DNA of 64,000 nucleotides from sequence record NC_014662.1. One strand, given 5' to 3'. The notes beneath the pieces are model-generated. The model was not told the origin of the DNA and searched no databases. It saw nothing but the letters and a program-made list of their open reading frames with translations. Position numbers and translations under genes: made by a program. The stretch's first letter is position 1, and each line of letters opens with the position of its first letter. Source of the DNA: Enterobacter phage CC31. Positions 7,147 to 7,455 of this stretch are shown here, one piece after another.

Positions 7147-7455
7147 CTATTTTATTCCGCGCGATGCAATTGTGTTCTGTCGTTTAACACCAGTTTGTTT
7201 AAAGTCATGATTGTCGATTTGATCAGTACGAGCAACGCCAAATGATGATTTGATCTTAGCTTTAGAGCCTTTAGTTATAGAAACAAACATCTCAGAAGAG
7301 CCTTTCTTAAAGTCCGAGGCGGATACTTCAACGCCGTTCTTAGCAAGTGACTTCAGAATTGCCTCTGCATACTCATCATCAAGACTTGCTTGAGTATTAA
7401 TGACGAATGTCTTTGGCGCAGTAGCTTCGTTGATAAATTCTTGATAGGTTTTCAT
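7147..7455 (-). CDS. Internal protein (IPI-like) with capsid-targeting N-terminus
   Basis: Starts [11 protein letters not shown] (T4 internal-protein targeting sequence); sits upstream of 57B as T4 ipI does. Confidence 0.7.

Follow-up and report, generated by a model that had tools for sequence, protein, structure and literature searches.

An Ip7-family internal protein of Enterobacter phage CC31 in the 57B-trna.4 slot, a candidate inhibitor of first-response host defense

The variability of the ip locus of T-even phages is textbook knowledge. The internal proteins that are injected from such loci constitute the earliest counter-defense of the phage and a determinant of its host range, because they act before phage gene expression. 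Three of them, Ip1, Ip2, and Ip3 of T4, are the ones with known targets, all of which are GmrSD enzymes: GmrSD-CT596 for Ip1, GmrSD-ECOR21 (BrxU) for Ip2, and the two-gene GmrSD-ECOR17 for Ip3. Inhibition is strictly specific in each case, and the leader is the sole part that the three proteins share (PMC12373910). IPIII from which the targeting sequence has been removed works from the cytoplasm (PMC9391042). The name Ip7 goes back to Repoila et al. (1994; cited in PMC3012670 and PMC12373910), who reported that T-even phages have a set of at least 10 leader-bearing internal proteins. According to a recent proposal, every protein encoded at the two Ip loci acts against some variant of GmrSD (Silas et al. 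2025, PMC12373910).

The DNA considered here, referred to as the window, is a stretch of 64,000 nucleotides from Enterobacter phage CC31 (NC_014662.1). According to the list of open reading frames, its minus strand carries at 7147..7455 an ORF of 102 aa with an ATG start and a TAG stop (7147..7149), here called ip7. The gene order on this strand is gp4, gp2, gp3, gp1, gp57A, gp57B, ip7, a trna.4-like gene, and then tRNAs, such that the ORF sits between gp57B and trna.4, in the same arrangement as the T4 ipI neighborhood. Among the hotspots for Ip genes, namely 57B-trna.4 and e-denV, it thus occupies the former. The upstream neighbor (7452..7910, minus strand; PF23474, E 1.2e-58) encodes gp57B, the anti-CBASS cyclic-nucleotide phosphodiesterase Acb1, and forms the conserved 5' flank of the slot. 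Its stop codon and the ATG of ip7 overlap in the tetranucleotide ATGA, and the two counter-defense genes, Acb1 and ip7, therefore appear to be translationally coupled. The downstream flank is a trna.4-like gene for a small membrane protein (6902..7081, minus strand; phrog_1692, named after the PG7 annotation). Farther downstream, ARAGORN gives seven tRNA genes at 5064..6016, compared to 20 annotated in PG7, and colinearity with the best-matching Karamvirus records is lost over the segment 5074..6400; CC31 therefore has a shorter tRNA/accessory region.

Proteins 100% identical to the product of this ORF are found in 16 GenBank/RefSeq records of PG7-group Karamvirus phages (e.g., YP_009005424.1 of PG7), where they are annotated as "Ip7 protein", as "internal head protein", or as hypothetical, and the surrounding segment 6400..8200 of the window is 99.7% identical in nucleotides to PG7-like Karamvirus. 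The PHROG family phrog_2667, "internal head protein", matches over the full length (residues 1–102, E 1.8e-42), while no family in Pfam or NCBIfam matches Ip7. Judged by these matches, the ORF belongs to Ip7, a family that has a name and is annotated in many phages, and the gene was already known. With homologs detected by tblastn in 282 phage records from at least five genera, Ip7 is among the most widespread internal-protein families. The identity is 92% to the T2 homolog, about 75–79% to those of Moonvirus, about 50% to those of the Gaprivervirus phages VR5, VR7, and VR25, where the gene is annotated as ip7, and about 47–49% to those of Klebsiella phages of the Jiaodavirus type; the farthest homologs that were aligned, from Gaprivervirus and Klebsiella phages, lie at 43–54%. 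An exhaustive HMMER search of 1.84 billion cluster representatives returned three related clusters, all Ip7, and on the evidence of these searches Ip7 does not extend beyond T4-like phages.

The first 11 residues of Ip7 are identical at 10 positions to the N-termini of T4 IPII and IPIII and follow the pattern of the T4-type internal proteins, MKT(Y/F)(Q/K)EF...(I/L)-x-E↓A (the arrow marks the cut). The leader of T4 IPI differs, having 19 residues, MKTFKEFTSTTTPVSTITE, followed by A. Mapping of T4 IPIII with amber suppressors has assigned residues 4 and 7 to targeting and residues 8 and 10 to processing (PMC9026906), and all four are present in the leader of Ip7, as Y4, F7, I8, and E10. Within the family (14 homologs), M1, E6, F7, I8, and E10 do not vary, and position 4 is occupied in every case by either Y or F. 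The protein contains a single [LIVM]-x-E site, the I-N-E of the leader. A capsid-targeting sequence encoded by codons 1–10 (7426..7455, minus strand) is therefore assigned, with predicted cleavage by gp21 after Glu10 in the context I-N-E↓A. The sequence-only reading had already taken the N-terminus for such a targeting sequence, and the comparison bears this out, placing it with the IPII/IPIII type. The motif is not a chance feature, because a strict six-frame scan of the 64-kb window for the leader of the T4 internal proteins finds the Ip7 ORF only and a looser scan adds just one ORF, at 452..742.

This second leader-bearing ORF (minus strand, 96 aa) lies directly after the lysozyme gene e (729..1223), at the ipII/ipIII hotspot. 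Its product matches phrog_27873, of unknown function, and is much rarer than Ip7, homologs being present in 8 of 50,697 phage records: those of Edwardsiella phages PEi20 and PEi26 are 75% identical, and those of JS98, JS10, and MN04 are 33% identical. Within the same 50,697 records, no homolog is found in other Karamvirus, and nucleotide homology to the Karamvirus relatives starts at 722, within the leader codons of this ORF. A relationship between this protein and Ip7, hinted at by a MAFFT alignment and by a weak match to phrog_2667 (E 0.0065), was rejected, since hhalign with leader-trimmed profiles gives a probability of 0.3%. In JS98, the gap between 57B and trna.4 (1216..1863 of the locus excerpt), which is unannotated in RefSeq, contains two leader-bearing ORFs, the first starting MKSYKEFLTEA... 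and the second being the 33% homolog of the 452..742 protein.

The machinery required for packaging through such a leader is encoded in the same window, which includes the genes of the gp20 portal, gp21, gp22, gp23, and gp24. The prohead protease gp21 (36353..36994, plus strand; PF03420 Peptidase_S77, E 4.6e-104) would be expected to remove the leader. The gp23 of the window carries an L-T-E↓A context (FLTEAEIGG), which presumably sits at the maturation cleavage position of T4 gp23. The prohead scaffolding core protein gp22 (37028..37843, plus strand; PF25623 T4_CASP, E 1e-89) is the expected docking partner, its core-targeting role being known from T4 work (PMC9026906). Given the leader and these proteins, Ip7 is in all likelihood a packaged and processed internal protein.

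The expression of the gene deserves a comment in this context. The T4 late-promoter consensus, TATAAATA, does not occur just upstream of ip7, and the nearest exact TATAAATA on the minus strand is found at 10868..10875, 3.4 kb away and upstream of gene 4. This is a caveat rather than a contradiction, because late transcription from upstream could read through, and ip7 is probably co-transcribed with gp57A and gp57B. The lack of a dedicated late promoter and the coupling of the start to gp57B would also suit an ORF that is not packaged at all, the leader being a relic of recombination and the protein being either purely intracellular or non-functional. In line with this, neither proteomic detection in virions nor evidence of cleavage was found for Ip7 in the main texts of the searchable literature, and the part of the supplements covered for a Jiaodavirus virion mass-spectrometry paper contains no peptides of the Jiaodavirus homolog. 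Such a relic is nevertheless very improbable, as the leader is invariant at the functionally mapped positions while the bodies are only 43–54% identical, and the 10-residue leader alone suffices in T4 to package foreign proteins (PMC9026906). Moreover, dN/dS among the unsaturated homolog pairs amounts to 0.13–0.3, well below 1, and the coding sequence is therefore under purifying selection.

The hypervariability that had been ascribed to this locus on first reading is seen directly in a phage of the same genus. In the ip7 slot, Cronobacter phage Pet-CM3-4 has an unrelated leader-bearing protein of 78 aa, although its gp57B, gp57A, gp1, and trna.4 proteins are 95–99% identical to those of the window (98% for gp57B and 95% for the trna.4-like protein). 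In the nucleotide alignment of the two phages, similarity is lost beyond about codon 12 and regained at the stop codon, which means that the exchanged unit is exactly the mature body. The region where the homology resumes, 7082..7146 (minus strand), is the conserved 3' flank of the cassette and includes a hairpin region that is identical in the two phages. The hairpin (7088..7132) has a calculated RNA folding energy of −25 kcal/mol (z −4.65), and its outer stem pairs with the Shine–Dalgarno sequence AAGGAG of trna.4. The same 7082..7146 stretch reads as a T4-early-promoter-like element (GTTTAC, 18 nt, TACTAT) and may thus have promoter and regulatory roles. This intergenic region probably anchors recombination at the 3' side of the cassette.

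The comparison with T2 gives the reverse picture, in that Ip7 is 92% identical but gp57A, gp1, and trna.4 are only 35%, 56%, and 37% identical, respectively. The similarity takes the form of a 406-nt block, 87% identical, which extends from the ip7 ATG across the intergenic region downstream. Such a pattern indicates that the cassette has spread laterally in recent times. In Karamvirus, T2, and Moonvirus, the homologs lie at the 57B-trna.4 hotspot, and in Gaprivervirus and Jiaodavirus they are found at the e-denV-vs.8 hotspot instead. In T2, each ip gene is preceded by a unit similar to the 7082..7146 region of the window, a near-identical promoter-like repeat of about 70 nt, which would favor unequal recombination and the shuffling of cassettes. 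The T2 locus excerpt shows, at 2174..2809, tandem cassettes at the ipI position, an 84-aa protein of phrog_3499 followed by Ip7.

As to the body of the protein, the sequence-only reading had described it as not recognizably T4 IPI, and the alignments agree. BLASTP against IPI aligns residues 1–32 alone (E 0.001), and against IPII and IPIII the alignment is limited to residues 1–11 and 1–20, respectively. The body profile of the Ip7 family gives a probability of 0.09% against mature IPI in hhalign, and IPI belongs to phrog_4363 as opposed to phrog_2667 for Ip7. Remote homology to the three T4 proteins was accordingly rejected, since only the leader is detected by these methods. A similarity to ankyrin repeats, seen as matches to a fungal NACHT-ankyrin protein (E 3.6e-4 over four repeats) and to a DARPin (E 0.0098), was also rejected; these matches were put down to composition and repeats, as the confidently modeled fold is of the beta-alpha-beta type rather than helix-turn-helix.

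The AlphaFold2 model, which was calculated from an alignment of 14 sequences and has a mean pLDDT of 76.5, predicts a folded core at residues 12–80 (7216..7422, minus strand; pLDDT about 90) with a beta-alpha-beta-beta-alpha-beta topology of the ferredoxin/ACT-like type, followed by a disordered basic C-terminal tail at residues 81–102 (7150..7215, minus strand; pLDDT about 50). In the family alignment, the core carries an invariant K62-G63-S64 turn and the tail a conserved R-x-N-T motif, of which R92, N94, and T95 are invariant. The predicted mature protein has 92 aa, a mass of 9.9 kDa, and a pI of 9.65, with 15 K+R against 10 D+E. No IPI* entry appears among the best 50–60 structural matches of the model. 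The model suggests that the fold is generic and gives no specific lead to a partner or a function.

These properties invite the question of whether Ip7 could be mainly a structural, charge-neutralizing component, that is, a high-copy, lysine-rich protein that aids condensation, the rate of packaging, or ejection and has no target in the host. A basic mature protein with a disordered basic tail would suit such a role, and the ferredoxin-like folds among the structural matches include the nucleic-acid-binding RRM and S6 domains. In addition, a review of T4 reports that lysines of the internal proteins touch the DNA phosphates, and an IPIII mutant assembles heads more slowly. However, a generic polycation would not call for conservation of a folded core or for an R-x-N-T motif kept invariant in the tail, and all three T4 Ips have proved to be inhibitors of defense. 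Furthermore, phages that are otherwise near-identical carry unrelated proteins in place of the cassette, the replacement in Pet-CM3-4 having a pI of only 6.8, a pattern better accounted for by host-specific selection than by a structural requirement. A purely structural role is thus quite unlikely.

An anti-defense function, argued for by analogy with Ip1–3, is the reading that we favor, with moderate confidence. The DNA-modification genes annotated in the closest relative are consistent with this. PG7 is annotated with gp42 (dCMP hydroxymethylase), gp56 (dCTPase), a beta-glucosyltransferase, and a beta-glucosyl-HMC-alpha-glucosyltransferase; from these genes, which lie outside the window, the DNA of CC31 is probably glucosylated hmC, the substrate of Type IV enzymes. 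In the proposed mechanism, the 102-aa precursor would be produced along with gp57A and gp57B and would dock, by means of its 10-residue leader, in the prohead core formed by the gp22 scaffold. Cleavage by gp21 after Glu10 would leave the mature 92-aa basic protein in the head with the DNA, from where it would be ejected into the cell alongside the glucosyl-hmC genome to act as a stoichiometric inhibitor of a first-response host defense. Packaging, cleavage, injection, and the anti-defense role are all steps that we infer here. As an overall explanation, an injected Ip7-family internal protein that inhibits a first-response defense appears the best one, and a reasonably probable one.

Regarding the target, the likeliest single candidate is a modification-dependent (Type IV) restriction enzyme of the GmrSD type, as for Ip1–3 of T4, but of a subtype outside the published panel; the assignment to a GmrSD-type enzyme is tentative and has, in our estimate, somewhat less than an even chance. 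Two members of this family can be set aside. T2 is restricted by GmrSD-ECOR21 and GmrSD-ECOR17 (PMC12373910), and these are not the targets of Ip7, because T2 natively carries Ip7 and is restricted nonetheless. When ip4–10 were screened against active GmrSD variants, an apparent effect of ip7 on CLS_011 was not reproducible (PMC12373910); the screened ip7 is equated here with the Ip7 family through the shared nomenclature. As the published panel gave no reproducible GmrSD target, one may consider that Ip7 inhibits a defense of another kind in the first minutes of infection, for example another nuclease or an abortive-infection sensor. Ip7 is 92% conserved between the E. coli phage T2 and the Enterobacter phage, and it occurs in at least five genera, which speaks for a target shared across the Enterobacteriaceae; the neighboring gene encodes the anti-CBASS protein Acb1, which shows that anti-restriction is not the sole function housed at the locus. 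On the other hand, the three characterized Ips all target enzymes of the GmrSD family, a very diverse family of which just eight active variants were assayed in the panel (PMC12373910), and direct evidence for any other target is absent. A non-GmrSD target is thus unlikely, though less so than a structural role.

Returning to the inhibition of a first-response defense, one form of it is that Ip7 inhibits a defense that none of Ip1–3 address, be it a GmrSD subtype outside the panel or a different system. This is possible but rather doubtful. The same holds when the reading is taken jointly with a target conserved across Escherichia, Enterobacter, Citrobacter, and Klebsiella and with the ferredoxin-like core and the R-x-N-T tail as the binding surface, a combination that we regard as speculative. 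A target conserved across host genera would explain how the cassette could spread near-unchanged (92%) between phage genera.

It should be stressed that no new entity is described here: an annotated gene has been re-identified, which the sequence-only reading had linked neither to the Ip7 family nor to the GmrSD screen, and the idea that the protein may act on a different host defense, which the sequence-only reading had put forward, restates the current working hypothesis of the field (Silas et al. 2025, PMC12373910). On the question of the Ip7 target, the sequence analysis contributes no more than the predicted fold and the set of conserved residues. The target, if found, would constitute a new inhibitor-defense pair and would be relevant to the choice of therapeutic T4-like phages for Enterobacter and Klebsiella.

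Finally, the CC31 protein can be placed among the known systems as follows. With the Ip7 family, represented by the internal head proteins of PG7 and T2 and by ip7 of VR7 and VR25, it shares length, leader, and hotspot loci; there is no difference of substance, and the CC31 protein is a member. T4 IPI (Ip1) occupies the same position between 57B and trna.4, is likewise small and basic, has a leader that starts MKT(F/Y)(K/Q)EF, and presumably follows the same route from the scaffold core through gp21 cleavage to injection. However, its leader is of 19 residues and is cut at ITE↓A, compared to 10 residues in Ip7, and the bodies are unrelated in sequence and fall into different PHROGs. For IPI*, the description is of a pair of beta-sheets with a helix at either terminus; for Ip7, the predicted fold is beta-alpha-beta-beta-alpha-beta with a disordered tail. 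The 10-residue leader of T4 IPII and IPIII is essentially identical to that of Ip7, but there is no similarity past residue 20, and T2, although it carries Ip7, is still restricted by the targets of both. The 78-aa internal virion protein of Pet-CM3-4 (best PHROG phrog_8111, E 9e-08) and the 84-aa internal head protein of T2 (phrog_3499) have the same slot, leader, and flanks as Ip7, while their bodies are unrelated both to each other and to that of Ip7.
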